DNA of 64,000 bases from Cyanobacteria bacterium P01_F01_bin.150 (lineage in GTDB: Bacteria; Cyanobacteriota; Cyanobacteriia; CAKZMO01), in the NCBI GenBank assembly GCA_039189765.1, contig JBCCYL010000007.1, forward strand, positions 92,553 to 156,552. Reading direction: 5' to 3'. Under the pieces are notes generated by a model, which was not told where the DNA came from, did not search any database, and saw nothing but the letters and a program-made list of their open reading frames with translations. Position 1 is the first letter of the stretch, and every line of letters begins with the position of its first letter. This document shows positions 2,951-64,000 of this stretch, one piece after another. The position numbers were made by a program, and so were the translations under genes.

Positions 2951-3331
2951 ATGGCATTGAACCAGGTTCGCGATACACTGACCACCGTCTACGATCAAGA
3001 TAAGCGTAGATTGCTCTCAGCCTTATCCCACGGCTCTATTTTCTTTAGCACTTTGTTGTTCTCTATCGGCGTTCCGATCGCTATCCTTTTGATCTCAGAT
3101 GACCCTGTGGTCAAAGATAACGCGCGGGAAGCCATTAACTTCTCCTTTAATGTCTGGTTCTGGGGCGGGGTGATTGGGGCTCTGTCTTTCTTGACCTTGG
3201 GTTTACTGGGCTTTTTCCTTATTCCCCTTGGATTTATCTGGCACTGGGGATTCACCATTTGGGCCACTATGAGCACTCTAAATAACCCAAATGAACCCTT
3301 CCGTTATTCGTTTATTTTTCGTCTTCTATAA
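2951..3331 (+). CDS. DUF4870-like small membrane protein
   Basis: LSALSHGSIF...VKDNAREAINF...PFRYSFI pattern with three hydrophobic segments. RBS GAGGGG. Confidence 0.8.
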   Translation: MALNQVRDTLTTVYDQDKRRLLSALSHGSIFFSTLLFSIGVPIAILLISDDPVVKDNAREAINFSFNVWFWGGVIGALSFLTLGLLGFFLIPLGFIWHWGFTIWATMSTLNNPNEPFRYSFIFRLL

Positions 3332-3425
3332 AGAAGCATTGCTAACGAAGTGCTTGTAAATTAGGTCTTAGAAAGTGCGTTATGGATTTGTATCCTGCGT
3401 ACTTTTTTAAGCAAATGATGATTGC

Positions 3426-5594
3426 CTAGTCGTTTAGAATCTCACGCATTGTTTGGGCCAGCTGCATTGCATCAGCATTTTCGGGTTCCAGACTCAAGGC
3501 TCGATCAACAGAGTCCAGAGCCGCGCTGAACTGTTGCAGTCCCCATAGAGCAGCTCCACGATTGCTCCAAGCCTCTGAAAGACTTGGGTCAAGCGCGATC
3601 GCCTCATCAAATGCATCCACCGCCTTTTGAAGCTTATCCATCCGCAACAAAGCCGTTCCTTTATTATTCCAGGCTTCTGCAAAGGCAGGATCTTTTTTAA
3701 TCGCCTTGTCATACAGCTTGATCGCATCCTTGTACTCTTGCTGTTGTTCCAGAGCATATCCCTTACTCCATAAGGCCCGTGAGTGATCTTTGTCTAGATC
3801 GATAGCTTGATCGCAGGCTGCAATTGCTTCATCAAAGCGCTGGAGAGCATTAAGGCTGTAGCATTGCCCCACATAGGCTTCAGTCGCATCTGGGTAGGCT
3901 GCGATCGCCCGTTCATAGAGGACTAGGGCTTCTGAATATTGCCCTGCATCCTGTAGCTGTACTGCCTGTGTTAACTGGGCTGTAAGAGGAGAAATAGCAT
4001 TATCAATGTGGGATGGTGGTGTTATGACAGTGGAACCCTCTATCGGATTAGAACTACTTGATGGTTGAGTCTGGTTAAGGTAGGCAGATGGTGATGGTCC
4101 GTCAATAGAAGGAAATGAACTGGAGGAAGGCTGGGGTTCAGCCTGATGCGTAGGTGTTGAACTCTGATCATCCGTTGCTGCTTCCGAGCCTGGTATATGA
4201 CCGGCTGTCTCCGATGCAGAGGAGTTCGTTTGGGCAATAGTAGGAGACAGCGGTGAGGGTTCTAAACCAGATTTTCCTAAAATTACTCCTATGATTAACG
4301 CGCCAAGAACGGCGATTGCTGCTGGGAACACTCTCCTATATGGTCCTAGAGGACTTCTTGTGTGAATAAAAGGTTGAGGATTTGTGACTAGCTCTGTCGT
4401 CCCAGTGGTTTTCGTCATCCTATGACTTATGCCATGACCGTTATGGCTATGTTCTTTGGAAATATCCATGCGTTGACCTACAACCCGCTGGGTTCGGGCC
4501 AATTCCATACTGGGGATAGAACTGGATATGCCCTCATGGGGCATCGAAGAATCAACAGATGAATCTTGGGTAGGAAAAGACGGAGCAACCACCAGGGTTG
4601 ATTCGGTCGATTGTTCCTTGGCACTAGCTTGTAAGGAAACAGAAGTATGGCCAGCTTGCTGACTATCAGCGTGATCCTTAGCTTGGTCATTTTGAACAGG
4701 GTTGGAAAGGCTAGCCGGAATCGCTTGCACTAGCTCCTCAGGCAGTTTTTTTAGGGCATTAAACGCATCGGCAGCTATGGCATATCGAGAGCGAAAATCA
4801 TACCGAACCATTTTGTCTAAAAAGGCGACCAATTCTGGACGGACTTGTTCTGCATAATCATGCCAATTCAACTCCCCTGTAGTGGGATCGGGTGTCAGCA
4901 TGCGAGGGTGGCGTCTAGTCAGCAGTTGGATTCCCATAACGCCTACTGCATATAGATCGCTGCTAAATTGAGGCATGCCAACAATTTGTTCGTTAGGCAT
5001 GTATCCCTGGGTACCGATGGAAATCGTATGACTGATGCTTGTCTCTGAATTGATCAGTTGGGTACTCGCCTGCTTAACCGCTCCAAAATCAATCAATACA
5101 ATTCGCTGATCGCGGCGACGACGCATTAGATTAGAGGGTTTTAGATCTCGATGGATGACCCGCTGTTGATGAACAACAGATAGGGTCCCTAAAACATCCC
5201 CTAGAAATGTCACAACCTGGCTATCTGTCCAGCGTTTGGTCGTTGTAAATTCTTCGGATAGGGAATGCCCTTCAATCAATTCTTGGGCAAGGTAAAATTC
5301 ATTCTTGTCTTCGAAGTGAGCCAACAGTTGGGGAATTTGAGGGTGGGTACCCAAGGCATAGAGAACCTTAGCTTCTGTATCAAACAATCGCCGTGCTACT
5401 TGCAGCGCTTGGGCACTTTCGACGTGGGGCTTGAGCTGCTTAATGACACAGGTTGGCTGCCCAGGCAGATGTAGGTCCTGGGCCAAAAAGGTATGGCCAA
5501 AGCCCCCTGCTCCTAGTTCTTGAATAATTTTGTAGTGTCCCCCCAAGGGGGGCTTGGAACGCAACTGTAGCGATCGCAAAAAATTTAATGCCAT
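3426..5594 (-). CDS. Ser/Thr protein kinase with TM segment and C-terminal TPR repeats
   Basis: GAGGFG, VIKQL, HRDLKPSN, DFG and GTQGY kinase motifs. TM VFPAAIAVLGALIIGVIL. TPR repeats of the AWNNKG/AWSNRG type. Confidence 0.95.
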   Translation of the reverse strand: MALNFLRSLQLRSKPPLGGHYKIIQELGAGGFGHTFLAQDLHLPGQPTCVIKQLKPHVESAQALQVARRLFDTEAKVLYALGTHPQIPQLLAHFEDKNEFYLAQELIEGHSLSEEFTTTKRWTDSQVVTFLGDVLGTLSVVHQQRVIHRDLKPSNLMRRRRDQRIVLIDFGAVKQASTQLINSETSISHTISIGTQGYMPNEQIVGMPQFSSDLYAVGVMGIQLLTRRHPRMLTPDPTTGELNWHDYAEQVRPELVAFLDKMVRYDFRSRYAIAADAFNALKKLPEELVQAIPASLSNPVQNDQAKDHADSQQAGHTSVSLQASAKEQSTESTLVVAPSFPTQDSSVDSSMPHEGISSSIPSMELARTQRVVGQRMDISKEHSHNGHGISHRMTKTTGTTELVTNPQPFIHTRSPLGPYRRVFPAAIAVLGALIIGVILGKSGLEPSPLSPTIAQTNSSASETAGHIPGSEAATDDQSSTPTHQAEPQPSSSSFPSIDGPSPSAYLNQTQPSSSSNPIEGSTVITPPSHIDNAISPLTAQLTQAVQLQDAGQYSEALVLYERAIAAYPDATEAYVGQCYSLNALQRFDEAIAACDQAIDLDKDHSRALWSKGYALEQQQEYKDAIKLYDKAIKKDPAFAEAWNNKGTALLRMDKLQKAVDAFDEAIALDPSLSEAWSNRGAALWGLQQFSAALDSVDRALSLEPENADAMQLAQTMREILND

Positions 5595-5664
5595 TATTTT
5601 AACGTCGTTATTAATCGGTAGATTTGTCAGCTAGAAAACGAGTAAGAGATGTACGACCCTACTG

Positions 5665-7767
5665 TCATCTCTTCTGTTTCGCTAGCGGCTTATTTCGATG
5701 AAATTGGTAGATATGGTCACCATCTTCGAATCCCTTTAGACTCGATTCGCCATTTTTAAGTGCTTGATGAATAAAGCCCTGTTGCAAAAGCCACTGACCA
5801 ATGAGCAAGGCATCTTCCCTTGCATAGTCTCTCTGTTGCATAATCCATTCGACGGCATCTGTGCCAGTAAAACAATCGGGATAGGTGCGGGAACCATAGG
5901 TGCGATCGCTTAATTCCATGCCTTTGGCCGTTTCATCGTATCCCTGCATTGCGTCTGCCAATGATTCTAGATCCAAATCAGGAGAAACTTTTGACAGAAT
6001 TGGCTCCTGTTCATTTAAAGCTTTTGGCGCTGACAGTTGGTTTGACGCTTGATCTGCAAGGGACAGTGCTTGTTGGCCAGTAGATCTGTCATTAATGCTT
6101 TCCTTGCTAGGTGGGGAAGTGGCCGGTAGAACTGATGGTTGATGTGATTCTGAATGTTTAGGACCTATCGATTTTGGCTCTAAAGGTGACATATTTATAT
6201 GATGCTTCAGAATACCCACTAGTTCCTCTAAGTGGGGCGATTGCAAATGTAAATCCCTTTGAGGAAAGGGAATCTGAATATCATTACGGCGCAAGCTGGC
6301 TTCAATTTCATAATTCAGATCACTGCGGACCTGTGCTTGTTTACGGGGTTCCCCTGTCCAAACCAATACTTCAAACTGGAGGTCACTATCGCCAAATCCT
6401 TGGAAAAAAACATCTGGTTTGGGTCTAAGCAGAACTTCAGGATGCTTGCGCACTGCTCCAAGCAGTGTTTGCTTCACAAGGGTAATATCAGATCCGTAGG
6501 CTACTCCAATCGGAATGTGGAGACGTGATACGGAGTTGCCATGGCTCCAGTTAATTACTTCACTTTCCAAAAAACGAGAATTAGGAATAATAATCGTCAC
6601 CTGATCCAGAGTGCGTAATTCGGTGCTGCGCGCCCCAATATTAACCACCGTCCCTTCGCGATCGCCCACATTAATAAAATCCCCTACTTGAATGGGCCGT
6701 TCTAAGGTGATAATAAATCCGCTAATAAAATTGTTAGTGATATTTTGGACCCCAAAACCAATTCCCACACCTAACACACTGGCTAGGATCGTGAGGGAGC
6801 TGGCATCGATCCCCCATACCTGCAGCAAAATCACAACCCCTAAAAAAATTAGGGCATACTGAATCACCACGCTGAGGATATCTTGGATTCGCTGCTCCAG
6901 ACGTGCTTGGTTCAAAACGTAGGTGCGAAACAAATAGGTTAGCAAATTTGTCCCAAACCACAAGATGATCGTGCCAATTACTAGGCGAATTAAGTTGAGC
7001 GCTGAGTACCGGACATCACCCAGTTGGATAATATCTGCGCTCAGCAGATTGACCACTGCGTAACGGACAATTCGAGTCTCCGGAAAAATATCCGTAATAT
7101 AGAAGGCAACGACCAGCCATAATCCTGCCTTGAGGCCAAAACTGCCGAGGTGCCAAAACATTTTAACGGGCTTTTCCAACTCCTGAAATTGACCAGAGTC
7201 GTATTCAAACCAACGTTTCACATATCGATAGCCCGTGCGGCCAAGAACCCAGATAATCATTTGAAGGGCGATCGCCCCTATCAAAGCAATCGCACTATAC
7301 GTTTTGGCTTGGTGACGGTAAGCGGGTTGACGCTCTTGTTGTCCTTGACGTAGGGCTGATTGCAATTCCTTGGCCCATTTTTCTGCCTGTTTACGGCGAT
7401 CACCGCCAGGAATCGTTACATCAGCATCCGTCACCGTAATCAAGATATCTTGATTAGATTGGCTTCTGAGATAGACTTGATCCCGCTCTCGATCGCCATC
7501 TACTCGAATAGTGGCTTGGGCTTCAGCGATCACTTCACGCAGTAGTTCCTTATTAATATGGTCAGCTCGCTGACTAGCGGTAAATTTCTCCGTATCCTTG
7601 ACCGTAAAAATGATGTTGCCGTCTACTACCACCGCCGCATCCTCTCCATCAAGAGGCGTAAGTTGGGCTAAGCTGGGCGGCATCTGACAGGCATGAACAG
7701 CAATGACTAAAACCATTGTCACTATTACGGTCACCCATCGCGTCCATTTGGACCTCACCATGTCCAC
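5665..7767 (-). CDS. MscS-family mechanosensitive channel with N-terminal periplasmic domain and C-terminal DEP domain
   Basis: LGVGIGFGVQNITNNFISG, ERPIQVGD and IPFPQR (MscS). C-terminal YPDCFTGTDAVEWI...GQWLLQQGFIH...FEDGDHIYQF (DEP). Confidence 0.9.
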   Translation of the reverse strand: MDMVRSKWTRWVTVIVTMVLVIAVHACQMPPSLAQLTPLDGEDAAVVVDGNIIFTVKDTEKFTASQRADHINKELLREVIAEAQATIRVDGDRERDQVYLRSQSNQDILITVTDADVTIPGGDRRKQAEKWAKELQSALRQGQQERQPAYRHQAKTYSAIALIGAIALQMIIWVLGRTGYRYVKRWFEYDSGQFQELEKPVKMFWHLGSFGLKAGLWLVVAFYITDIFPETRIVRYAVVNLLSADIIQLGDVRYSALNLIRLVIGTIILWFGTNLLTYLFRTYVLNQARLEQRIQDILSVVIQYALIFLGVVILLQVWGIDASSLTILASVLGVGIGFGVQNITNNFISGFIITLERPIQVGDFINVGDREGTVVNIGARSTELRTLDQVTIIIPNSRFLESEVINWSHGNSVSRLHIPIGVAYGSDITLVKQTLLGAVRKHPEVLLRPKPDVFFQGFGDSDLQFEVLVWTGEPRKQAQVRSDLNYEIEASLRRNDIQIPFPQRDLHLQSPHLEELVGILKHHINMSPLEPKSIGPKHSESHQPSVLPATSPPSKESINDRSTGQQALSLADQASNQLSAPKALNEQEPILSKVSPDLDLESLADAMQGYDETAKGMELSDRTYGSRTYPDCFTGTDAVEWIMQQRDYAREDALLIGQWLLQQGFIHQALKNGESSLKGFEDGDHIYQFHRNKPLAKQKR

Positions 7768-8594: not shown

Positions 8595-9713
8595 TTAAAC
8601 CTGATGCTGAAGATATTTGATCGCAATATCCAAGATCCGTTGGGACGATTGACCATCCCCAAACGGGTTGATCGCAGTAGCCATTTGTTGATATTTAGCC
8701 TCGTTAGTCAATAACTCAGTAGCTTCTTTTAATAAGATATCTGAGCTAGTTCCAATTAACTTAGCAGTGCCTGCGGTCACAGCTTCAGGCCGCTCTGTTG
8801 TCTCCCGTAAAATCAACACAGGTTTACCCAAGCTGGGGGCCTCTTCCTGAAGACCGCCTGAATCAGTCATTAACAAATAACAACGTTGAATTGCCCCTAC
8901 AAGTTGAGTGTAGTCCAGGGGCTCAATCAAAAATGTCCGCGCATGGTCACCTAAAATAGCCTTCAGGGGTTCTCTCACGGTAGGATTACGATGAAGTGGC
9001 AAAACTAACGCGGTATCTGGGAACGTATCTAAAATCTTTAGAAACCCATTGGCAATCTCTTCTAGCGGCGAACCCCAGTTCTCTCGGCGATGAACAGTGG
9101 ATAAGATCGTTCGATATTTACTCCAATCCATTCCAGGGACAGAGCATTCGGGCGATCGCCCTGCAACATCTAACAATGCATCAATTACCGTGTTTCCAGT
9201 CAGATAAATCTCACCCGTCGTTCCAGACTGTTTAAGATGCCCTACGGCAACATCCGTCGGGGCAAAATGCAGCTGAGCAACTTGAGAAATTAATCGGCGA
9301 TTCGCCTCTTCAGGAAACGGATCATAAATATTATCCGTACGTAACCCTGCTTCTACATGGCCCACTGGAATTTTTTGATAGAAAGCAGCCAGTGCAGCTG
9401 CAAATGCGGTTGTTGTATCACCCTGAACCAATACCAAATTGGGTTGAAGCGTTTGCAATAAAGTCTGTAAGCCATCTAAGCTGCGACAGGTAATATCTGT
9501 AAGCGACTGTTTTGGCTGCATAATGGCCAAATCTTCGTCAGCCGTCAACTCAAACATTCCCATTACTTGGTCTACCATCTCTCGATGCTGTCCAGTCAAG
9601 ACAACACAGGTCTTGACCTGTTCAGATTTCTTAAAGGCTTGAATGACTGGGGCTAACTTAATCGCCTCTGGACGAGTGCCCAAAACAATGCAAACCTTAA
9701 ATGGCTTAGTCAT
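8595..9713 (-). CDS. wecB: UDP-N-acetylglucosamine 2-epimerase (non-hydrolysing)
   Basis: GTRPEAIK, GHVEAGLR, TDSGGLQEEAP and NPFGDG motifs. Confidence 0.97.
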   Translation of the reverse strand: MTKPFKVCIVLGTRPEAIKLAPVIQAFKKSEQVKTCVVLTGQHREMVDQVMGMFELTADEDLAIMQPKQSLTDITCRSLDGLQTLLQTLQPNLVLVQGDTTTAFAAALAAFYQKIPVGHVEAGLRTDNIYDPFPEEANRRLISQVAQLHFAPTDVAVGHLKQSGTTGEIYLTGNTVIDALLDVAGRSPECSVPGMDWSKYRTILSTVHRRENWGSPLEEIANGFLKILDTFPDTALVLPLHRNPTVREPLKAILGDHARTFLIEPLDYTQLVGAIQRCYLLMTDSGGLQEEAPSLGKPVLILRETTERPEAVTAGTAKLIGTSSDILLKEATELLTNEAKYQQMATAINPFGDGQSSQRILDIAIKYLQHQV

Positions 9714-53862: not shown

Positions 53863-55227
53863 ATGGAGGAGGCTCGGTTGACGCTAATCGATATTCGCCA
53901 GTTTTACCAAACCACCAACCCTGCCAGGGTTCTAGACCCTGAAGATGAGCAAGACCGTGCCTTCTATATCGACTTTTCCTCGGTGCGGGGGGAGCCGATT
54001 ATCAACGAAATTAAGGATGTGATTAGTTTTTATGAGCCGGATAATCCCACCTGCACCTTATTTACGGGGCATATTGGCTGCGGTAAATCCACGGAGCTAC
54101 TGCGGCTGCGGGCAGAGTTAGAGACAGACGGGTTCCATGTGGTCTATTTTGAGTCATCCGATGACCTGGAGATGGCGGATGTGGATATTGGCGATGTGCT
54201 GTTGGCGATCGCCCGTCGCATTAGCCAAAGTCTGGAGGCGATTAATCTTGGTAATCCTAAGGGGCTGCAAGGGTTTCTCAAGGGTGCAGCCAAAGTGCTG
54301 ATGACCGAGATTGAGCTGGAAGGGTCGGCGGAGTTTATGGGGATGGGTCTGTCGGGCAATAGCCAAGGGGAAATGACCCTGTCGGCGGGGATTGGCAAGA
54401 TTACGGCGCGGGCCAAGAATGATGCGAAATTGCGCGATCGCCTTAATCAGTTCCTCGGTCCCCAGAAGAATCAGCTAGTGGATGCGATTAATAATGAGCT
54501 GCTCAAGCCTGCGATCGCCCAGCTTAAGGAACAGGGCAAAAAGGGTCTGGTGGTGATTGTGGATAACCTAGACCGAATTGATAATCGGGTGAAAGGGATG
54601 GGGCGTTCTCAGCAGGACTATCTGTTTATTGACCAGCATGAGTGCCTTCGTAATCTCAACTGTCATAAGGTCTATACGTTGCCCCTGGCAATGAAATTTT
54701 CCAGTGATTACGGATTGCTGACCGCTCGCTATATGGACGATCCCAAGGTGCTGCCCATGGTGCCTGTTATGTTGCAATCGGGGGATCTGTGTGAGGAGGG
54801 CATGGGGCTAATTCAGCAAATGGTGTTGGCGCGGGCGTTGCCCCACGGCACGGCGGCAGAGCGGTTAGCGCTAATTCCCCAACTTTTTGATTCTACCGAG
54901 TCCCTAACGCGGCTGTGTTTGGCCAGCGGTGGACATGTGCGGGATTTACTGCGTTTGCTGAATGGCTGGGTGCGTAAGCACCGCAGCTTTCCCCTCCAGC
55001 GAGACAAGCTGGAAGAGGTGATTCGGGCGCGACGCAATGAAATGAATCTACAGCTCTCGGATGATGAGTGGGAGTTGCTGCGGCAGGTGCGCCAACGCAA
55101 AAAAGTAGGAGGCGATCAGGACTATCAAACGCTAATCCGCAGTCGATTGGTATTTGAATATCGCAATCAGGGACTGTCTTGGTTTGACGTTAATCCGATT
55201 TTGTTGGATGCTCCTGAACTTCAGTAG
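53863..55227 (+). CDS. P-loop ATPase (AAA/STAND-associated), probable partner of the downstream nSTAND-WD40 protein
   Basis: GHIGCGKST Walker A, VIVDNLDR Walker B, SGGHVRDL and WFDVNP. Confidence 0.85.
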   Translation: MEEARLTLIDIRQFYQTTNPARVLDPEDEQDRAFYIDFSSVRGEPIINEIKDVISFYEPDNPTCTLFTGHIGCGKSTELLRLRAELETDGFHVVYFESSDDLEMADVDIGDVLLAIARRISQSLEAINLGNPKGLQGFLKGAAKVLMTEIELEGSAEFMGMGLSGNSQGEMTLSAGIGKITARAKNDAKLRDRLNQFLGPQKNQLVDAINNELLKPAIAQLKEQGKKGLVVIVDNLDRIDNRVKGMGRSQQDYLFIDQHECLRNLNCHKVYTLPLAMKFSSDYGLLTARYMDDPKVLPMVPVMLQSGDLCEEGMGLIQQMVLARALPHGTAAERLALIPQLFDSTESLTRLCLASGGHVRDLLRLLNGWVRKHRSFPLQRDKLEEVIRARRNEMNLQLSDDEWELLRQVRQRKKVGGDQDYQTLIRSRLVFEYRNQGLSWFDVNPILLDAPELQ

Positions 55228-55304
55228 GGTCCAGCTTCTGGTGGGAAATAGGGGCGCGTCGTGCCGCCATTTCCCACAAACTTGTTGCGCCTTACGTTGG
55301 CCCC
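55228..55304 (+). mobile_element. Divergent ~80-bp repeat, copy H, at the ATPase stop codon
   Basis: GTGGGAAAT..ATTTCCCAC hairpin and TTGTTGCGCCTTA. Flanks CTTCAGTAG / CTTGAGTAG. Confidence 0.55.
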
Positions 55305-55345
55305 CTTGAGTAGTATATTGGAATTATAATTCATGCGATACGGCT

Positions 55346-55918
55346 ATGGTGATTACCCTTGATTTGAGTACAACCTTGGAATTGACTGATGCTCAGTTTG
55401 AAGCGATTTGTCGCCAAAATCGAGAGCTGCGCTTGGAAAAAACGGCTAAAGGGGAATTAGTGATTATGCCACCAACGGGCGGTGAGACTGGTGAACGTAA
55501 TTCTTCAATGAATGGTCAACTTTGGGTTTGGAATCGCAAATATAAGTTGGGCCGATTGTTTGATTCATCGACTGGGTTTCGATTGCCGAGTGGGGCGACG
55601 CGATCGCCCGATGCTTCATGGGTTAAAGAAGAACGCTGGCAGCAATTAACCCCAGACGAACGGCAGAAATTTTTACCTCTCTGTCCTGACTTTGCCATCG
55701 AGCTAAAGTCTTCCTCCGATAGCCTCAATGATTTACAGCGAAAAATGGAGGAGTATGTGGCAAATGGCTTGGTATTGGGATGGTTAATTGACCCAAAACA
55801 AAAAACGGTTAAGGTCTATCAGCAAAATCTACCCTGTAAAACGATTAATCAGCCCAAACGCCTTGCCGCTGACCCAGTTCTGCCTGGATTTGTAATGGAG
55901 TTTGACGATATCTTTTGA
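55346..55918 (+). CDS. Uma2 family (DUF820) endonuclease-like protein
   Basis: GELVIMPP, FDSSTGF, SPDASW, CPDFAIELKS and GWLIDP. Confidence 0.95.
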   Translation: MVITLDLSTTLELTDAQFEAICRQNRELRLEKTAKGELVIMPPTGGETGERNSSMNGQLWVWNRKYKLGRLFDSSTGFRLPSGATRSPDASWVKEERWQQLTPDERQKFLPLCPDFAIELKSSSDSLNDLQRKMEEYVANGLVLGWLIDPKQKTVKVYQQNLPCKTINQPKRLAADPVLPGFVMEFDDIF

Positions 55919-56072
55919 ACCTCTAACGTATTGGTGTCGGATCTGCCAATACCAATACGTTTAAAAGTACCAGTACGGTAAGGTCCGTTGTCACGCACAA
56001 TCACATTAGATCCTAGCTGGAAACGGTGTGTTGTCACGCACCCTATGTTTGCTACTCCCAATGTCCCTCTGC

Positions 56073-56350
56073 TTGACGGAATAACCGCAATCGACTTATG
56101 GTCATTGATAAGGGTGGCGATCGCATTTTGCCATCACCACCCCGGAGCAGAACTCAATAAGAATTTAGCGCCATCGGCAGGTGTTGAGACCACCGAACCG
56201 ACGGCTAGATCCCTAAAACTGCACATGCCAGTCTAAGGACTTGGGTTGATTATGCCCTAGTCTCCCGACTTGCACCAGAGGTTCGGGGACGGCTAATCAC
56301 CTATTGAGTTCTGGTTTCCTCTGCAAACCCGATTAAGGAAATCAGAACAA
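56073..56350 (+). promoter_or_regulatory. Sigma70-type promoter and highly structured 5' leader
   Basis: TTGACG-N18-TATGGT. Multiple helices, including CAGAACTCAATA (56148-59) / TATTGAGTTCTG (56302-13). Confidence 0.55.
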
Positions 56351-56605
56351 ATGTTTAGACCTTCTAACCCGGACGCGTTTGCGTCCAACGATGGTGGTGC
56401 CCATTCTTCAGATGATTCGTCCCCATCGCCCCAGTATGAACGGGTGCGCCATCACCTGTATGGTCGCCCCAACATGGTGCAGGCAGTGATTAAATATCTG
56501 TACAAGCTAAACTATGCCGAACCCCACGAATGGAGTAAACCCATCCCCACCGGACGCCCCCCTGAAGTCATGGTGATACTAACCAAAAAAGTCCAGGTCA
56601 ATTAA
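56351..56605 (+). CDS. Small cyanobacterial hypothetical protein
   Basis: AAGGA RBS. VRHHLYG..LYKLNYAEPHEWSKPIPT..EVMVILTK pattern, which I recall from cyanobacterial accessory genes. Confidence 0.7.
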   Translation: MFRPSNPDAFASNDGGAHSSDDSSPSPQYERVRHHLYGRPNMVQAVIKYLYKLNYAEPHEWSKPIPTGRPPEVMVILTKKVQVN

Positions 56606-56630
56606 ATCGGACTTAGATCCCAGCGGACTT

Positions 56631-56663
56631 AGATCCCAGGGTTCTTTAAGAACCCTGGGATCT
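56631..56663. repeat. REP/SDR-like palindrome with a partial upstream duplication
   Basis: AGATCCCAGGGTTCTT-T-AAGAACCCTGGGATCT. CGGACTTAGATCCCAG is duplicated just before it. Confidence 0.7.
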
Positions 56664-56685
56664 GACCACCAGAAACGATAGGAAT

Positions 56686-56904
56686 ATGTACCTCAATTAT
56701 TTCAAAGCAGAAGAAAATGTGGTGGACGATAATGACCCCATCGGCATTGTGTTGGCAACGGATAAGGATGAGGTGATGGTGGAGTATGCCACTGGCTCTA
56801 TTTCAAATCAGCTTTTTGTATCGCGATATCAACTTTATTTACCCGATGTAGAGGTTTTGAAGCGAGAGCTACAAAGGCTGCTAGAAAATAATGATGAATC
56901 ATAA
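56686..56904 (+). pseudogene. C-terminal fragment of a YhcG/DUF1016 PD-(D/E)xK protein
   Basis: MYLNYF..DNDPIGIVL..VEYA..LFVSRYQLYLP matches the DUF1016 C-terminus. The N-terminal part is absent. Confidence 0.75.
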
Positions 56905-56930
56905 ATAATGCGTAACAGGAGGTAAGCAGA

Positions 56931-59900
56931 GTGTCGCCCCAAAATGCAGCAGCGATGGAAGAGTTGGTGGGGGCGATCGCCTTTTCCCAGGGGGCGAATG
57001 CGCTTAATCTGCTGCTGGTGCGCTGTAACTATGGCCAGTTGCGGGAGCAAATGGTAGCCGCACTGCTGGCTCAGCTCGAAGCGGAATCGCTGGATGGTCC
57101 GGTGCATATTCTGCGGTCTGGTGGGGTAGATATTCACGATCAAATCCAATCCGTCACCCAAGATGGTCCCCCAGGCGCAGTGATTGTGCTGGTAACGGCA
57201 ACGGGGGCGGACCTGGATGCGGTGTTGGTGGAGTTAAATAAGCGACGGGAGGAGTTTCGGCGAAACTTTCGGTTTCCGGTGGTGCTGTGGTTCACGGATG
57301 AGGGCTATCAGCGGCTGTCCCAGTTGGCCAATGATTTTGAAAGCATTGTGGGCGGGGAGGCGATCGCCTTTGGCCTATCCGGAGACGACCTGTCCCAGCG
57401 GTTAGAAGATGCCGCCCAGGCAATGTTTACGGCATTGTTAAAGCCGGATAGCTCGGCGTCGTTTAATAAACGGCTAAAGGAAATGACCTTGGGCTATTTA
57501 AGTGCAGATGAGGTGGCGATCGCCACCTCGGACCTACATGCTCAAGCCTATGCCATCAGCCCCGGCCTCCAGGCTCATATTGATTTTGCGCGGGGATTAA
57601 ATGTGGCTCCCGTGGAGGCGATCGCCCTTTTCCAACAGTGTGCGGACCATTGGGCAACGGTGGGAACGCCAGGGGCATCGCTAAAGCAGGGAGTGGCGCT
57701 ATATTATCTGGGGCAGGCTAGCTATTTTGTTATCGACAAGCTCAAGAATCAGCCACGGGATGGGCTGATTGATGATTGGGCGATTGGGGTTAGGCACGCT
57801 GAGAGAACGGTCAGATCGGATGGGCCACAGTATGATTTTTCGGCTCGGCCTACGTCCCAGCCTCTTTTAGAATCGGATCAAGAGCCGATTACATGGGATA
57901 TTGCGGTGCCGCCCCTTGAATACTGTCTCGCTATTTTTGACCAGGCTAACCGACCGGATTTGGTAGCGGTGTGCGTTAATCGACTGGAACGGACGCTGCA
58001 TCGGCTACAGCGCTGGGATGCTCTGGAGCGACTAATTCAGCGAGCGCTACCGTTGCATCAGACCTACGGCACGGTCAGTAAGCTGTCTCAAGACTATGGA
58101 TTTCTGGCAGATATTGCGCTCCATCGGGAACAGTGGCAGGAGGCGGCACAATTGGCCCAACAGGCGCTGGACTTGTTGGAACCAAAGAGCCAACCGCCAG
58201 TAATGCGATCGTGGTGGCCCATTCTCTATCGCTATTTGTTGGCAAAGGCAGAACGGGCCTTGGGCAATGGGGATGCGGCAACGGCTCAGCTCCAAGCTGC
58301 AATGGCCATGGGCGTAATGGATCGACCCACACTCTATAGTGCCGTACTGTCGTTGCTCCGGGAATGTTTGCGGGACCAGGGGCAGTATTTGGAGGCGTTT
58401 GAGCTAAAGCGGGAACGGCTGTCGGTGGAGCGACAGTATGGGCTGCGAGCATTTATTGGGGCGGGGCGATTGCGATCGCAGCGGGTGGAGCAGCGGCCTA
58501 CGGTACAGTCGGGACGACAGACGCTGGAGGCGATCGCCCCTGAAATTGATTCTTCGGGACGCTACAGGGATTTGGAGGAGCTGCTGAACCGAATTGCCGG
58601 AACCAGCCATAAGCTAATTGTGCTCCACGGCGATTCAGGCGTGGGGAAGAGTTCTCTAGTCAATGGAGGACTGGTTCCAGCGTTGCAGGCGAAGGCGCTG
58701 GAGAATCGAACGAATGTGCCCGTTGTGTTGCGGCGATATACGAATTGGGAGCGGGAACTGTCTACAGCTCTCACGTCTGCATTGGGCAACCAAAATCCAA
58801 AATCCAAAATCCAAAATCCGGAAGACCCACCCCTAGCCCCTCCCAAGAGGGGGACCGGAGGACCCACCCCTAGCCCCTCCCAAGAGGGGGACCGGAGCGT
58901 CCAAAATCCAAAATCTAAAATCCAAAATTCCCTGCTTTCTACTCTCCAACACTGCGAAGGCCTCTCCCTCCGCCCTGTGTTGATTTTTGACCAGTTTGAG
59001 GAGTTTTTCTTTGCCAATCCCGATCGGGTGGCGCGGCGGGCGTTTTTTCAGTTTATTGCGGAGTGTTTGGAGCTGCCTAGTGCGCTGAAGATTGTGTTTT
59101 CGCTGCGGGAGGATTATCTGCACTATTTGCTGGAGGCGAAGAAGCTGGTGCGGCGGAGCGACCTGGGGGATGGGTCGATGGCGCGATCGCAACTGGAAGA
59201 TATTCTGGGGCAGAAGACGCTATATGAAATCGGCAATTTTAGCCCGGAGGATGCGAAGGCGATTATTCAACGGTTAACAGCGGGGTCGAGGATGGGGTTG
59301 GAGCCTGGGCTGGTGGATGCGCTGGTGGCAGATTTGGCTCGACCGTTGGGGGAAGTGCGGCCGATTGAGATGCAGATTGTGGGGGCGCAGCTACAGACGG
59401 AGGGGATTCAATCACTGAGCCGATATCTTCTATTAGGAGATGAACCCAAGGAAGAGTTAGTTAGTCATTATTTACAAGATGTGGTAAATGATTGTGGTGA
59501 AAAATATACTCAGTTGGCTGAGTTAGTTCTTTACCTCCTGACTGATGAACGAGGAACACGGCCATTGAAATCTGTTTCAGAACTACAACAAGAATTAAAG
59601 CCTCTATTACCTCATTTTGTTTTGTTAGATGAACCTTTTACCCAACTTTCAACTTCTTCAAAACAAGAGACTGCTATTGACACCAAAGATACTCAAAACC
59701 TTGACAACCCAAAAACGCTAAATGGTCTAGGCTATGTTTTACATATTCTTTGCGGTTCAGGGCTTATTTCCTACTTCCCTGAAGAGCCAGAGGATCGCTA
59801 TCAATTAGTACACGATTATGTGGCAGAAACTTTTCGTTTACGCTATGACTTTAGACTGCATAAAAAGCTTATCAAGGTAGAGGAAGAACGTGGCAAACTT

Positions 59901-62075
59901 TTTCAAGCTAATCAAGTTTTGTTTGAAGCCAGACGAAAAGCTCGAAGATTGTTGAGAACAACATTAGGCATATCAGTTTTAACCTTACTTTCAATAATAA
60001 TTTTTTCTGGTATTGCTAATCAAAGAGCTGAGGTAAAAAAAGAGAAAATCATCTTATCAGCTAAGATTGATCAAGATAGTAATTATGCATTGCAACAATT
60101 TGAATTTTCCCAGATTGATGCTTTAATAACGGCTATAGATGCCAGCTATGAGTTAAAAGATATTATAGAAATTAATGATTCTTTTGCAGATTATCCAGCC
60201 CTTACTCCTCTGTTTGCACTACAAAAAATCCTTAATCAAATCAATGAAAAGAATCGGATTGATATTGGTAATAGTTCAGTTTACTGGGCAGGCTTTAGCC
60301 CTGACAATCAGTATTTTGGGGTTACTTCCGAAAATGGAAATGTTCAGATTAGGAGAACTACAGGTGACATTGTTTCTTCATTCGAGGCTTGTGAAGGTAA
60401 GGAAGCATGGAGCTTAAGCTTTTTAAGTATCAATAAATTTGCTGTTGCTTGTGCTCCTGTTCCTTCTTCTAAAATTGGCTTAATTGAAATCTATAATCGT
60501 TCAGGCCAGAGAATATCAAGTTGGGACGGACATAAAGGGGGAGTTGGAAGTATAGACTTTAGTTCGCAAAACAACATCTTAGTTTCAGCCGGGCAAGACG
60601 GTTATGTAAGGATTTGGAACGAATCTGGTCAGTTATTATTTGAAGCGCTTAGCCATAAAGGTCCTGCATATTGGGTCAGCATGAGCCCAGATGGACAAAA
60701 ATTTGTGTCAGTTGGAGAAGATGGACTGGCAAAGGTTTGGAATATCGATGGTCAAGTATTAGTTAATCTTGTGGGGCACAGAGGTGCTGCTACAAGTGCT
60801 GATTTTTGCCCGGACAGTGAAAGCATTGTAACAACTGGAGATGATGGAACAGCTAAAATTTGGAATCTTAATGGTGATGAGATTGCTGAATTTTCAGGGC
60901 ATAAAGGACTCGTAACAAACGTAAATTGTTTTTTAAATGGAGATAACGTCGCAACAGCAGGAGACGATGGTACTATCCAAATCTGGAATCATTTAGGTCA
61001 AGCTTTATTTAAATTGAGAGGACATCAAAATCGTATTTGGACTGTTAATGTAAACACAGATGAACAACAACTCATTTCAGCAGGATCGGACGGCACTGTT
61101 AGACTATGGAATCTTTTAGGAAAAGAATTATCTAGCTGGCAGGCTCATTCGGGTGCTGTATGGAGTGTTAGCGTTAGTCCCGATGAGAGGTATCTTGCAT
61201 CGGCTGGACAAAATGGTGTAGTAAGCTTGTGGAAGTCATCAGGAGAGAAAATTACTGATTTTAAGGGTCACACTGACAGAGCTTTTTGGGTGAATTTTGA
61301 TCCAAGAGGACAAAGAATAGTCTCGTCTGGAGAAGATGGGATGACAAGGCTATGGAATTTATCGGGAAAAGAGCTAAAAATTTGGTCTAGTTGTCAAGGA
61401 TCTGCTCATGTAGCAAAATTCAGTCCTGATGGGAAAACCATTGCAACATCTTGCTCGACAGGAGACGTAGTACTACAGAATAGTGTCACAGGAAAGATAA
61501 CTTCTCGATTTAAAGCCCATCAAACTCATGTCTATAGTGTTAGCTTCAGCCCTGATGGACAAGAGCTTGCATCAGCAGGTGAAGATGGAAATGTAGGAAT
61601 ATGGAATTTGGACGGCCAAAAAATTCATAAATTTCATGCTCACAAAGATGTTCTATGGGTAGATTGGAGACCTAATGGTGAGTCTATCGTTACTGCGGGA
61701 AGGGAAGGCATAGCAAAACTTTGGGATAAGCAAGGGAATCATCTCAGTACATTTATTGGTCATCAAGGGGGAGTGACATGGGCTGGATTCGATCCTGACG
61801 GAGAGAGTATTTTTACAGCTAGTAGAGATGGGACTGTTAGGCGTTGGGACTTAAGTGGGAGGCAAATTTCCCAATTTGGAGGACATTTTGGCGGAGCCTT
61901 GAGTATAGGATTTTTGCCAATTACAGACTTAATTGTAGTATCTGATGAGGATGGTATTATTAGGCTATGGAGTATAGAAGATTTACCCCAGTTAATTAGT
62001 AAAGGGTGTAGTTGGTTATCTAATTATTTTGATGAAAATGAAGAGAAAGATAGTGTATGTCTGGATCAACCTTAA
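56931..62075 (+). CDS. TPR + nSTAND1-like NTPase + TM + WD40 repeat protein
   Basis: GDSGVGKSS, IFDQFEEFF, LREDYL and YQLVHDY. TM TTLGISVLTLLSIIIFSGIA. About 14 GH...W WD40 repeats. Confidence 0.9.
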   Translation: MSPQNAAAMEELVGAIAFSQGANALNLLLVRCNYGQLREQMVAALLAQLEAESLDGPVHILRSGGVDIHDQIQSVTQDGPPGAVIVLVTATGADLDAVLVELNKRREEFRRNFRFPVVLWFTDEGYQRLSQLANDFESIVGGEAIAFGLSGDDLSQRLEDAAQAMFTALLKPDSSASFNKRLKEMTLGYLSADEVAIATSDLHAQAYAISPGLQAHIDFARGLNVAPVEAIALFQQCADHWATVGTPGASLKQGVALYYLGQASYFVIDKLKNQPRDGLIDDWAIGVRHAERTVRSDGPQYDFSARPTSQPLLESDQEPITWDIAVPPLEYCLAIFDQANRPDLVAVCVNRLERTLHRLQRWDALERLIQRALPLHQTYGTVSKLSQDYGFLADIALHREQWQEAAQLAQQALDLLEPKSQPPVMRSWWPILYRYLLAKAERALGNGDAATAQLQAAMAMGVMDRPTLYSAVLSLLRECLRDQGQYLEAFELKRERLSVERQYGLRAFIGAGRLRSQRVEQRPTVQSGRQTLEAIAPEIDSSGRYRDLEELLNRIAGTSHKLIVLHGDSGVGKSSLVNGGLVPALQAKALENRTNVPVVLRRYTNWERELSTALTSALGNQNPKSKIQNPEDPPLAPPKRGTGGPTPSPSQEGDRSVQNPKSKIQNSLLSTLQHCEGLSLRPVLIFDQFEEFFFANPDRVARRAFFQFIAECLELPSALKIVFSLREDYLHYLLEAKKLVRRSDLGDGSMARSQLEDILGQKTLYEIGNFSPEDAKAIIQRLTAGSRMGLEPGLVDALVADLARPLGEVRPIEMQIVGAQLQTEGIQSLSRYLLLGDEPKEELVSHYLQDVVNDCGEKYTQLAELVLYLLTDERGTRPLKSVSELQQELKPLLPHFVLLDEPFTQLSTSSKQETAIDTKDTQNLDNPKTLNGLGYVLHILCGSGLISYFPEEPEDRYQLVHDYVAETFRLRYDFRLHKKLIKVEEERGKLFQANQVLFEARRKARRLLRTTLGISVLTLLSIIIFSGIANQRAEVKKEKIILSAKIDQDSNYALQQFEFSQIDALITAIDASYELKDIIEINDSFADYPALTPLFALQKILNQINEKNRIDIGNSSVYWAGFSPDNQYFGVTSENGNVQIRRTTGDIVSSFEACEGKEAWSLSFLSINKFAVACAPVPSSKIGLIEIYNRSGQRISSWDGHKGGVGSIDFSSQNNILVSAGQDGYVRIWNESGQLLFEALSHKGPAYWVSMSPDGQKFVSVGEDGLAKVWNIDGQVLVNLVGHRGAATSADFCPDSESIVTTGDDGTAKIWNLNGDEIAEFSGHKGLVTNVNCFLNGDNVATAGDDGTIQIWNHLGQALFKLRGHQNRIWTVNVNTDEQQLISAGSDGTVRLWNLLGKELSSWQAHSGAVWSVSVSPDERYLASAGQNGVVSLWKSSGEKITDFKGHTDRAFWVNFDPRGQRIVSSGEDGMTRLWNLSGKELKIWSSCQGSAHVAKFSPDGKTIATSCSTGDVVLQNSVTGKITSRFKAHQTHVYSVSFSPDGQELASAGEDGNVGIWNLDGQKIHKFHAHKDVLWVDWRPNGESIVTAGREGIAKLWDKQGNHLSTFIGHQGGVTWAGFDPDGESIFTASRDGTVRRWDLSGRQISQFGGHFGGALSIGFLPITDLIVVSDEDGIIRLWSIEDLPQLISKGCSWLSNYFDENEEKDSVCLDQP
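58791..58929 (+). repeat. In-gene repeat block: (CAAAATC)4, a perfect 37-bp tandem duplication, then more CAAAATC-like units
   Basis: GACCCACCCCTAGCCCCTCCCAAGAGGGGGACCGGAG at 58824-58860 and 58861-58897. Confidence 0.92.
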
Positions 62076-62138
62076 AGATTGTTCCAACTGTCTGTAAAGA
62101 AGTTTTCATCGGATTTTGTCAACATTGCTATAGCCAAA

Positions 62139-62399
62139 ATGATGATTAAGAGATTGTTTTTTCGTGTAGTAGTTATGCTAACAGCTTTGCCCAGTGTAGT
62201 GCTGAGTGTGAGCAGTGCAAGTGCAAAGGATCTGAATTCTCATTCCATGTTCTTACGTACTAGGGATACAGAAAAATCTGTATCAATAAATCTTACAAAA
62301 GAACGTGGTGGTAGTACATACGGTAGAGGCGGATCATCAGAACAAGCACCTTGGGGTGATCCCTATACAGGAAACGGTACTAGTTCAGACCAACGATAG
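62139..62399 (+). CDS. Small secreted peptide (Sec signal + Gly/Ser/Arg-rich C-terminus)
   Basis: MMIKRLFFRVVVMLTALPSVVLSVSSASA signal with AxA cleavage site. Mature part ends ERGGSTYGRGGSSEQAPWGDPYTGNGTSSDQR. Confidence 0.65.
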   Translation: MMIKRLFFRVVVMLTALPSVVLSVSSASAKDLNSHSMFLRTRDTEKSVSINLTKERGGSTYGRGGSSEQAPWGDPYTGNGTSSDQR

Positions 62400-62507
62400 T
62401 TATAAACTGAATGATTAAATAGACCTTCTTGCATAATTTTTTGATAGTATCTCAGGGAACTTTGCTTTCCAGCATTCTTCTCTTATCATAACTCCTTTAT
62501 ATAGATA

Positions 62508-63550
62508 CAGCGGTGTGCAGACTTATTAAGCACAATAGCAACAATGACAAAACCAATTATGCACATCCTCTAAGCTGATGGACTCCAACCCCGCCTGAAT
62601 GGCCTCATGCAGTTTTTCTTTAGTGGCCGTCTCAACCTGTCGCACATGCTGTTTGAGCTTGGACCACAAATTTTCAATTGGGTTAAAATCGGGTGAGTAG
62701 GGTGATAGATAGACCACTCGTGCCCCGACTCGTTCAATCGCCTCTTTCACCCCCTCTACTTTGTGAGCGGACAGATTATCCATCACCACCACTGCTCCTA
62801 GCCATAAGGTCGGTACTAACACCTGCTCGAAATACCACAAAAACGTATCCCCATTGGTGCCTCCCTCAAAACTAAATCCAGCCGTGAATCCAGCCACTAA
62901 GGTCATTGCCCCAATCACCGAAATATTTTTTCCTTTGGCCGGTTTTTCGCCATAGGCTCGATGGCCTCTTAGCGAGCGGGCATACTGCTCAACCATCGCT
63001 CGATTGAACCCGGTTTCATCCAGAAACACTAAATCGGATACCTTAATCGCGGCCATATCCTCCCAGTACTCCCGACGTTGCTGTTGCACCTCATCAGTGT
63101 AGGCTTTGCTGGCTTTCAAACTCTTTTTTTTACGAGTAATATTCAACTGGCTAAGTCCGCGACTGATGGTGCTGGAACTCACCTTTAGTTGAGTGGTTTG
63201 TTCCAGACGCTGAGCGAGTTGAGCGAGGGTTGCGTCATTATCGTCTTCCACCAGCGTTTGTAGGACCTCCAAATGGGCTGGAGTTAACTTCGCTAGGGTG
63301 TTTCCACCCCTGGGCAATGGATGGATAGAGCCTGTTTCGCGAACCCGTTTGAGCAAACGACGCACACAATCGGGGCTGACCTTAAATCGTTTCGCTAATT
63401 GGCGAATAGAGCCTTCACCAGCATTGTACGCATCGACAATTCGTTGACGCAGATCTAAGGAATAGGATTTCATCGATAATGCACCTGAAAGAGGAGAGGA
63501 TATCTCTTGATAGTACACATAAATGTGCTTAATTCAGGTGAACACCGCTG
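62508..63550 (-). mobile_element. IS630-family insertion sequence
   Basis: Imperfect TIRs CAGCGGTGTGCAGACTTATTAAGCACA / TGTGCTTAATTCAGGTGAACACCGCTG. TA duplicated at 62506-07 and 63551-52. Confidence 0.93.
62526..63473 (-). CDS. IS630 transposase (single uninterrupted ORF)
   Basis: YSLDLRQRI HTH, FLDETG, VMDNLSAH and YSPDFNPIE DDE triad. ATG 63473 preferred. Confidence 0.95.
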   Translation of the reverse strand: MKSYSLDLRQRIVDAYNAGEGSIRQLAKRFKVSPDCVRRLLKRVRETGSIHPLPRGGNTLAKLTPAHLEVLQTLVEDDNDATLAQLAQRLEQTTQLKVSSSTISRGLSQLNITRKKKSLKASKAYTDEVQQQRREYWEDMAAIKVSDLVFLDETGFNRAMVEQYARSLRGHRAYGEKPAKGKNISVIGAMTLVAGFTAGFSFEGGTNGDTFLWYFEQVLVPTLWLGAVVVMDNLSAHKVEGVKEAIERVGARVVYLSPYSPDFNPIENLWSKLKQHVRQVETATKEKLHEAIQAGLESISLEDVHNWFCHCCYCA

Positions 63551-64000
63551 TAGAGCGTAGAAGATGTAGTGATTTTAGGTAGTCTTTAACTCCCCTGTGA
63601 AATCTTTTTTCCACACTAAAAACTGTCTCTATGCGAAGATAAAATCAAAAAGATGGGGAATCTCAAGAAGTTTTAGCCCAGTTTTCAAATGCTATGACGG
63701 AGAAATAGGATTGCCTCTTATAGTCGGCAGGTCGACACATTTTGGGTTTTGGAAGGGCGATTTCCCATGGGATAGGTTATGTCAATGCCATGGCATCGCT
63801 AACTATAGTTCAATACCCGTGAACGAAATAGCTTTTTACACCTTCCTTGAGCATTTGGGGTAGAACTGCTGTAGTGTCAAAGAGAATATCTCACGTCCAC
63901 TTTAGCCATCTACAGCAGACCTATCCTGACTCAACCAACCGATACAACCAACTTGGCCGAGCTGGCCTCCCATTATAATATGGCTCCATTTAATCAACGC

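Follow-up and report, generated by a model that had tools for sequence, protein, structure and literature searches.

Whether the sensor of a bacterial STAND ATPase can be exchanged as a whole, and whether a peptide ligand travels with it, is the question raised by a 64,000-nucleotide (nt) stretch of Cyanobacteria bacterium P01_F01_bin.150 (GenBank assembly GCA_039189765.1, contig JBCCYL010000007.1, positions 92,553 to 156,552 of the forward strand). This whole stretch, hereafter the window, makes up the final 64 kb of contig C7, part of an assembly of 10.64 Mb with 350 contigs and a guanine-plus-cytosine (GC) content of 0.4675. It contains gene B (56931..62075, + strand), an uninterrupted open reading frame (ORF) whose translation of 1714 amino acids (aa) joins an nSTAND1 NTPase module, a predicted membrane helix and a WD40 repeat region. 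The initial annotation described a GC-rich 5' part bearing highly iterated palindrome (HIP1) sites that continues in an intact frame into an AT-rich 3' part, and proposed that the WD40 half was foreign and had been swapped together with a cognate secreted peptide encoded just downstream. The composition, the nearest relatives and the trees of the two halves indicate that gene B is a mosaic whose sensor half was replaced through a junction inside the ATPase module, and no counterpart of the proposed cognate peptide was found behind the related genes.

The break in composition is abrupt. The GC content in 300-nt windows lies at 0.51-0.59 from 56950 to about 59350 and at 0.30-0.44 from there to 62500, and the GC content at third codon positions (GC3) of gene B falls from 0.61 in codons 1-825 to 0.26 in codons 826-1714, with codon positions 1 and 2 shifting far less than position 3. 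Codon 825-830 was the maximum-likelihood change-point of GC3 (likelihood-ratio statistic 218). Runs of ten codons contain 5-8 G- or C-ending codons up to codon 829 and 0-5 beyond it, placing the switch at about codons 826-831 (approximately 59403-59430) and confining it to about 10 codons. When all 707 ORFs of 800 aa or longer in the 10.6-Mb assembly were compared by a two-segment scan, gene B had the largest intragenic break, with a GC3 difference of 0.35 against a 99th percentile of 0.267. Both halves are GC3 outliers, since GC3 averages 0.457 (standard deviation 0.071) across the genome's ORFs of 250 aa or longer. The recombination junction (59403..59430, + strand), supported by the change-point and by the cross-over of identities described below, is located inside the nSTAND1 module. 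It directly follows the conserved block EVRPIEMQIVGAQLQTEG, and a further 185 residues or so separate it from the membrane helix.

The window holds 78 HIP1 sites, seven of them in the N half of gene B with the last at 59183-59190, and not a single site was found in 59191-64000. Considering that 20% of composition-matched genome windows of 3.3 kb and 6.6% of those of 4.8 kb also lack HIP1, its absence was too weak after composition matching to serve as a mark of foreign origin and was rejected as such. The compositional description in the initial annotation is thus borne out by the GC, GC3 and HIP1 counts, with GC3 placing the break near 59405-59420 and the HIP1 count placing the end of the sites at 59190. 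Its claim of a foreign WD40 half stood only in part: a block of foreign composition does exist, but its border falls within the ATPase module instead of at the helix or the WD40 repeats.

The two halves of the protein were searched separately among 5.8 billion clustered proteins and found different nearest relatives. The C half (aa 824-1714) matched P0002, a metagenomic and C-terminally truncated protein, at 60% identity over the 62% of the query covered, and the other 118 proteins among the matches listed were at most 39% identical. The N half (aa 1-823) displayed 44-59% identity to P0121-P0142, including one clade at 52-59%, and only 35% to P0002; the source names of P0121-P0142 point to marine Leptolyngbya-like cyanobacteria (Leptothoe, Halomicronema and other bins). 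In windows of 50 residues, identity to the N-half group was 50-88% over most of aa 1-800 and 4-46% past aa 900, and identity to P0002 climbed from 14-56% to 44-72%. The two curves cross at aa 801-900, a region conserved across the whole family.

Trees of the STAND module led to the same picture. They were built by 'quick' IQ-TREE searches from 50 proteins, taken from the query, six paralogues of the same genome and the 22 best N-half and 25 best C-half matches after 4 of the 54 candidates without the anchoring motifs had been dropped. For aa 527-825, gene B was placed within a 23-row N clade with 100% support in the Shimodaira-Hasegawa-like approximate likelihood-ratio test (SH-aLRT) and P0002 fell outside, and a pairing of gene B with P0002 was rejected by the approximately unbiased (AU) test (p = 0.00025). 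For aa 826-986 (139 columns), gene B paired with P0002 with 100% support, and placing it with the N clade without P0002 cost 33 log-likelihood units (AU p = 0.034). The separate examination of the two halves suggested in the initial annotation therefore revealed different nearest relatives and discordant trees, on account of which gene B is regarded as a mosaic; by these comparisons it appears to be a recombinant whose halves come from different lineages. A DNA search of 40 related genomes found no donor of the AT-rich half, matching only the core at 58942-59570 (65-76% identity) and a repeat resembling a miniature inverted-repeat transposable element (MITE). Relatives of the sensor half were also sought in metagenome contigs of the Joint Genome Institute (JGI); two scans found no close relative there, the one locus recovered being a distant WD40 locus of 26% identity.

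The domain architecture of gene B (all coordinates on the + strand) explains what was joined at this junction. The first 155 residues (56931 to 57395) form an AAA+/STAND-like alpha/beta domain that lacks Walker A; folded alone by AlphaFold2 they reached a predicted local distance difference test score (pLDDT) of 87.7, and VIA-align gave Z 11.8 to TnsC (7rzy) with a root-mean-square deviation of 3.3 over 151 residues, as well as Z 9-11 to ORC/Cdc6, Pex1/6, RFC, Avs5 and NRC2. An invariant RCNY occupies the Walker A position, the invariant residues including C32, N33 and Y34. A TPR-like helical array follows at aa ~156-505 (57396..58445), for which Foldseek returned the TPR domains of LGN, OGT, KLC and Rap with E values of 5e-7 to 1e-4; the AlphaFold2 model of aa 1-535 has a pLDDT of 84.2 and a predicted template modelling score of 0.82. 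The GC-rich part of the nSTAND1 NTPase spans aa 543-825 (58557..59405), with positions 18-224 of the 379 in the Pfam nSTAND1 profile (PF20703) matching aa 543-807 at E 1.2e-24 and 88.1 bits, well above the cut-off of 27.1. Both the Walker A motif GDSGVGKSS and the Walker B motif VLIFDQFEEFFF (LIFDQFEE) are legible in the translation, and the Walker B residues D, Q, F, E and E are invariant in 7 paralogues. A short in-frame MITE-type repeat (58785..58940), recognised as repeated DNA and by contig depth, sits in the loop between the two motifs. It encodes ..QNPKSKIQNP..PLAPPKRGTGG.., the same DNA recurs across many cyanobacterial genomes, and relatives carry other low-complexity inserts in the same loop.

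Beyond the junction, aa 826-1010 (59406..59960) comprise the AT-rich C-terminal STAND part, with the conserved motifs LTDERGTRPLK and RYQLVHDY and the placement in the segment tree given above, and a charged helical stretch. The predicted membrane helix TLGISVLTLLSIIIFSGIA (aa 1011-1029, 59961..60017) has a Kyte-Doolittle mean of 2.2 over 19 residues and is preceded by the basic sequence RRKARRLLR. The post-helix linker (aa 1030-1110, 60018..60260) is 58-70% identical to P0002 against 16-34% to the N-clade relatives. Fourteen WD40 repeats, counted in the translation, occupy aa 1111-1700 (60261..62030); they are about 24% identical among themselves and match Pfam WD40 (PF00400) at E 6.5e-85 and 276 bits against a cut-off of 27, together with many beta-propeller families over aa ~1120-1690.

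The part behind the helix differs among the relatives of the N half. In the precomputed Pfam lists it consists of WD40 repeats in many of them, of CHAT in P0123, P0136, P0142 and P0154, of dCache in P0124, of CHASE2 in P0151, P0152, P0158 and P0162, and of histidine-kinase domains in P0181, and other relatives carry TPR only. In P0124 the dCache region is followed by a second hydrophobic stretch at the C-terminus, and in a same-genus genome (L009) a GC-rich homologue has a helix and then a CHASE2-like region. A conserved engine is hence combined with exchangeable post-helix parts across the relatives, in agreement with the initial annotation, which had proposed such an arrangement.

The dCache domain is known as an extracytoplasmic sensor domain. 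CHASE2 is treated in the same way in the relevant passage of Hu et al. (2017), citing Zhulin et al. (2003). The orientation of the helix was assessed in 249 relatives bearing the YQLVHD anchor, a helix being defined as a 19-mer with a Kyte-Doolittle mean of at least 1.7 that lies no more than 260 residues after the anchor. Such a helix was present in 195 of the 249, with a mean of 4.81 lysines and arginines in the 15 residues ahead of it and 2.25 behind it. The more basic flank was N-terminal in 175 of these proteins and C-terminal in 3, with 17 ties. Because of this bias and of the dCache and CHASE2 domains in the same position in relatives, an N-in/C-out orientation is favoured, and the WD40 propellers are probably located outside the cytoplasm. 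A C-terminal cysteine pair was considered as a sign of a periplasmic disulfide and rejected, being found in 69 of 120 proteins with the helix and 24 of 41 without it.

Gene B is accompanied by a partner. Gene A (53863..55227, + strand, 454 aa, GC3 0.60) encodes a KAP-like P-loop NTPase with a borderline match to Pfam KAP_NTPase (PF07693; 23.5 bits against a cut-off of 20, E 3.9e-5) and weak matches to ATPase_2 and AAA_22; its nearest Atlas clusters are cyanobacterial KAP-like proteins, 15-47% of whose members carry KAP_NTPase. A family scan covering one genome per prokaryote species matched at least 612 stretches, at least 402 of them encoding relatives, and among the matches listed the loci are almost all cyanobacterial; the best 80 loci were kept. 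Loci with an intact 5' end and 1.5 kb or more of sequence ahead of it number 67, and in 58 of them a gene A homologue lies just upstream on the same strand, often overlapping; all six paralogues in the genome also have one upstream. In most relatives the two genes overlap or stand side by side, whereas here a gap of 1.7 kb holds a Uma2 gene and a YhcG fragment. Gene A is 74-76% identical to the partners at the N-clade loci L018-L020; being closest to these and having a GC3 like that of the N half, it appears to share a common history with the 5' part of gene B. Gene B thus belongs, by homology and gene order, to a common cyanobacterial two-gene STAND module.

Searches for a named counterpart of this module returned little. 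PADLOC-DB 2.0 gave the generic HEAT-ARM_XIII model on gene B and a weak PDC-S20 on gene A, and no system-specific model was found there for either gene. The EACC1 two-gene system was considered as the identity of the pair and rejected as a different system. The gene A-gene B pair is not described in the sections of the Aravind-group papers that deal with STAND systems, and no description of a membrane-spanning two-gene STAND form was found in the excerpts of the full-text literature on this theme.

Composition steps are not restricted to gene B. Among the paralogues, steps were detected at codon 732 of C52, codon 526 of C3 and codon 533 of C108; C29 is AT-rich throughout, and C140 and C188 are GC-rich throughout. 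Since the breakpoints differ between paralogues, the junction is not a fixed cassette border. A search of the genome by tblastn with aa 824-1000 and aa 1001-1110 found no orphan sensor modules, the C-terminal STAND part occurring only in 7 full-length genes. Strong steps (likelihood-ratio statistic of at least 50) were present in 16 of the best 80 loci. In many Nostocales relatives (e.g. L040, L067, L055, L093, among L018-L097), an AT-rich N half with a GC3 of 0.20-0.29 is joined to a repeat half of 0.51-0.62, and recombination or biased gene conversion in near-identical repeats are both possibilities for this reverse step.

On the genome scale, 13 of the 16 largest breaks were annotated (L113-L125), leaving out gene B itself, paralogue C52 and one C77 ORF. 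They comprise a NACHT-HEAT protein, a WD40 protein, three TPR-CHAT proteins, another CHAT protein, an NB-ARC protein, a caspase-nSTAND1-pentapeptide protein, an RHS protein, a TPS-domain protein, an eCIS-Tox-GHH protein and two AAA-type ATPases. The sharpest composition steps of this genome are found mostly in modular conflict-type proteins, which suggests that module replacement is general in its conflict-type genes.

The second element of the initial annotation was the small ORF behind gene B. It starts with an ATG at 62139, 63 nt past the gene B stop, and runs to 62399 on the same strand, encoding 86 aa with the C-terminal end PWGDPYTGNGTSSDQR. As had been stated, its start resembles a signal peptide, with a basic n-region, a hydrophobic core and the sequence ASA|KD, and it passes a crude signal-peptide filter, which is also passed by ORFs behind 24% of other long genes. 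Pfam gave no match at E up to 1, DUF928 (PF06051) included. Nevertheless, its C-terminal 18 residues agree at 16 positions with the segment that directly precedes the DUF928 domain in a secreted protein on C45, whose gene (L007:5263-6297, - strand) lies in a cluster with sigma-like, DUF1822, CHAT-CHASE2 and dCache-HAMP-cyclase genes. The genome contains about two dozen DUF928 paralogues, all with a signal-peptide-like start and mostly with the leader motif P..G.P....GG.R..C ahead of the domain; four of them carry the variant W-G...G.R. The 86-aa ORF terminates exactly at the R of the motif, several stop codons follow it with no remnant of a DUF928 domain, and no DNA similarity to the C45 gene was detected; consequently it resembles an independent mini-gene or a fragment of great age more than a recent truncation. 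A scan of 87 related loci (1.27 Mb) with a hidden Markov model (HMM) of the DUF928 domain gave no match, so that DUF928 genes were rejected as conserved neighbours, and an HMM of the leader motif returned weak rows only (E of at least 2.8), among which the motif was present in the 86-aa ORF alone.

Other small ORFs were observed beside members of the family. Behind the C108 paralogue lies a convergent ORF of 46 aa (L006:7698-7838, - strand), which has a signal-peptide-like start and an end, ..GQPTDRSSGGYR (..SSGGYR), that faintly resembles the DUF928 leader motif; the leader HMM did not match it. Small ORFs with WSNWSNW-type repeats were found at L001:8020-8313 and 9051-9389 (both -), L083:6691-6978 (-) and L109:5813-6052 and 6575-6883 (+). 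They occur in the 10.6-Mb genome only beside the C29 paralogue, and in three genomes they lie convergently 18-57 nt past the stop of orthologous family genes (43-52% identity). At L109, L110 and L111 they adjoin ORFs of about 400 aa, one with a CxxxCxxC-type motif. These repeats resemble Trp-crosslinked ribosomally synthesized and post-translationally modified peptides, and we take them to be candidate precursors modified by radical S-adenosylmethionine (SAM) enzymes. Accordingly, the NW-repeat 'secreted' ORFs beside C29 were rejected as ligands, a radical-SAM peptide cluster being more likely.

The reading favoured here, and held to be fairly probable, is that gene B is a recombinant membrane STAND-WD40 gene of a two-gene module and a probable transmembrane NLR-like switch. 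Homologous recombination inside the conserved STAND block, after EVRPIEMQIVGAQLQTEG, would have joined 825 codons from a GC-rich lineage, which would also be the source of gene A, to 890 codons from a distantly related AT-rich lineage otherwise known only from P0002. The AT-rich part would have arrived with at least 430 nt of 3' flank, and the 86-aa ORF most likely came along with this flank. What the data establish is the mosaic with its junction, the conserved partner gene, the variable part behind the helix and a STAND core that looks active. In the resulting protein, as we infer its topology, signalling mechanism and output, a cue would be bound by the WD40 propellers, which are probably periplasmic, and relayed to the cell interior through the helix and the charged stalk. 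The STAND NTPase would then form oligomers, and the output would fall to the TPR and pseudo-AAA+ region together with the gene A NTPase.

Several points weigh against this reading. The tree of aa 826-986 comes from a short segment and its AU value is marginal, and one truncated protein is all that represents the donor lineage. Gene B showed no recognisable enzymatic effector domain. The helix is absent from 54 of the 249 relatives, including 41 of the 161 that bear WD40, so that it is not needed for WD40 function, and the CHAT domain placed after the helix in P0123, P0136 and P0142 would be odd if extracytoplasmic. The genome is probably metagenome-assembled, and the window ends where its contig ends. 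In run X1 (57500-62534) the contig depth is 52.8 to the left of the MITE-type repeat and 32.6 to the right, which could reflect GC bias or strains sharing the 5' but not the 3' part. Owing to this difference, the link across 58816-58905 comes from the original assembly only.

The last of these points leads to the possibility that genes of two organisms were joined in silico. The stretch was found in only one public run, which comes from a marine metagenome and is flagged as the possible source, and a chimera would also fit the 350 contigs, the estimated contamination of 4.7%, the size of 10.6 Mb against 4.9-7 Mb for same-genus genomes, the contig end at the window end, and the unequal depths on the two sides of a highly repeated element (58790-58930), where contigs break and the summed depth rises to 3100-6600 against 33-53 on the flanks. 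However, this element stands 480 nt to the left of the junction (about 59405), and the junction falls inside an independent Logan contig of 3630 nt, which covers 58905-62534 with zero differences and joins 500 nt of GC-rich to 3.1 kb of AT-rich sequence. Because this independently built contig crosses the junction, the latter is not an artefact of the assembler used here. Uncertainty in crossing the repeat does not create the mosaic either, since the sequence on each side of it is N-clade-like, with identities of 88% in aa 551-600 and 76% in aa 701-750. In addition, the reading frame and all family motifs run on across the junction, the segment 58942-59570 has no match elsewhere in the genome, and similar breaks occur in relatives from isolate genomes (L040, L067), making an in silico chimera highly improbable. 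Joints were seen in run X2, and one from 59134 to 61415 in run X1; their sides measure only 20-22 letters and lie beside repeats. A vertically inherited gene, in which region-specific mutation or selection such as biased gene conversion in repeats or the codon use of an exported domain produced the step, would be consistent with the GC3 steps common in the family, which run from low to high in 10 of the 16 cases (mostly Nostocales) and from high to low in 6. Such a process would nevertheless have to account for a change within about 10 codons, located in the cytoplasmic ATPase module, away from both the helix and the first of the repeats, for nearest relatives that differ by side with discordant trees, and for a low GC content that extends into the non-coding flank and the next ORF; it is considered very unlikely.

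The proposal of the initial annotation, that the WD40 half and the secreted peptide were exchanged together as a receptor-ligand cassette for polymorphic peptide or self/non-self sensing, draws on the position of the ORF, its GC3 of 0.28 against 0.26 in the sensor half, and its plausible predicted Sec signal peptide. The C-terminal motif PWGDPYTGNGTS.D.R, common to the region preceding DUF928 in spite of the lack of DNA similarity, hints at selection, and the stop codons and missing domain remnant behind the ORF as well as the convergent 46-aa ORF behind the C108 paralogue could be counted in its favour. For Nostoc punctiforme, one paper reports that WD40, CHASE2 and DUF928 genes are clustered (PMC5587647). 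On the other hand, a phmmer search of 1.84 billion representative proteins found the query itself and nothing else, contrary to the notion of a cognate peptide swapped with the sensor. The expectation that a small secreted ORF recurs and co-varies downstream of the family also failed: no similar ORF was found behind 61 related genes with complete 3' ends, and signal-peptide-like small ORFs followed 16 of these 61 against 168 of 686 other long genes, that is, without enrichment. Together with the empty DUF928 search and weak leader rows, the lack of orphan sensor cassettes in the genome and the differing breakpoints of the paralogues, these results render the cassette unlikely, and self/non-self recognition is pure speculation. 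A broader variant, in which membrane-spanning NLR-like receptors of filamentous cyanobacteria would diversify their extracellular sensing through exchange of entire sensor halves at the conserved STAND block, in the manner of Rhs and contact-dependent inhibition (CDI) toxins, and the DUF928-leader mini-peptide brought in at this locus could serve as a decoy or ligand of the propellers, is likewise judged doubtful, with only a small chance of being right. The recombinant two-gene switch set out above, with the ORF as a passenger of its 3' flank, is retained.

A Uma2-family endonuclease gene (55346..55918, + strand; Pfam Uma2, E 5.7e-43) and a 72-aa YhcG_C nuclease fragment separate genes A and B (55346-56904). 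On the right, an IS630-family element (62505..63552, - strand; transposase 62526-63518, with Pfam matches to DDE_3 at E 2e-33 and to HTH_Tnp_IS630) marks the limit of the unique AT-rich block and has two further copies in the genome at 93-94% identity. A second repeat at 63865-64000 is common to the ends of three other contigs, and the two repeats taken together account for the contig stopping here. Rfam gave no match in 55000-64000, and a terminator scan found no terminator.

Gene B can be compared with several known systems. With the nSTAND1 STANDs treated in sections of Kaur, Iyer, Burroughs and Aravind (eLife 2021, PMC8195603), where they are reported as enriched in filamentous, multicellular bacteria, it shares the nSTAND1 core with Walker A and B motifs and a C-terminal repeat as presumed sensor. 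It differs in its N-terminus, a degenerate AAA+ region and TPR without a recognised effector or effector-associated domain, and in having a helix between NTPase and sensor and a conserved KAP-like neighbour gene, features that are not described in those sections. With Apaf-1 and the bacterial Apaf-1-like and Avs STANDs it shares the STAND switch and the WD40 propeller sensor, as far as these are covered in parts of a preprint (PMC12803255), which also takes sensor types common to unrelated STAND clades as sensor exchange over evolution. Apaf-1-like and Avs proteins are described there as cytoplasmic and sensing intracellular proteins, whereas the sensor of gene B probably lies beyond a membrane helix. 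A further difference is that the recombination junction of gene B is still visible in the DNA.

Single-pass dCache and CHASE2 receptors have the same topology as that proposed here, and relatives of gene B carry these domains at the position of its WD40 repeats; the cytoplasmic part of gene B is a STAND NTPase and not a kinase, cyclase or chemoreceptor module. In polymorphic toxins (Rhs, CdiA/TPS), C-terminal tips are displaced and of different GC content. Gene B resembles them in joining a conserved 5' part in frame to a 3' part of another composition, and the RHS, TPS and eCIS-Tox-GHH proteins of this genome display the same kind of step. Contrarily, the swapped part of gene B is a sensor and not a toxin, and no immunity-like pair or silent cassettes were found. 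The WD40 repeats of fungal NWD/HET-E NLRs evolve fast and diversify by shuffling near-identical repeats. A WD40 sensor is diversifying in both cases, but the gene B repeats share no more than about 24% identity with one another, and replacement took in the entire half.

Sensor exchange in STAND and NLR proteins is usually inferred from domain catalogues. In gene B the junction can be read to about 10 codons inside a conserved ATPase block, making this gene a real and unusually clean case of sensor-half replacement in a bacterial NLR-like gene. Considering that the sharpest steps of the genome hit NLR-like proteins and polymorphic toxins alike, it is suggested that one recombinational route diversifies both sensors and weapons in large multicellular cyanobacteria. 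The two-gene module also adds an example of an NLR-like switch with a probably periplasm-facing sensor, a conserved KAP-like partner and no recognised effector. If the topology is true, these proteins would be candidates for the sensing of extracellular or cell-to-cell cues rather than of intracellular phage proteins.

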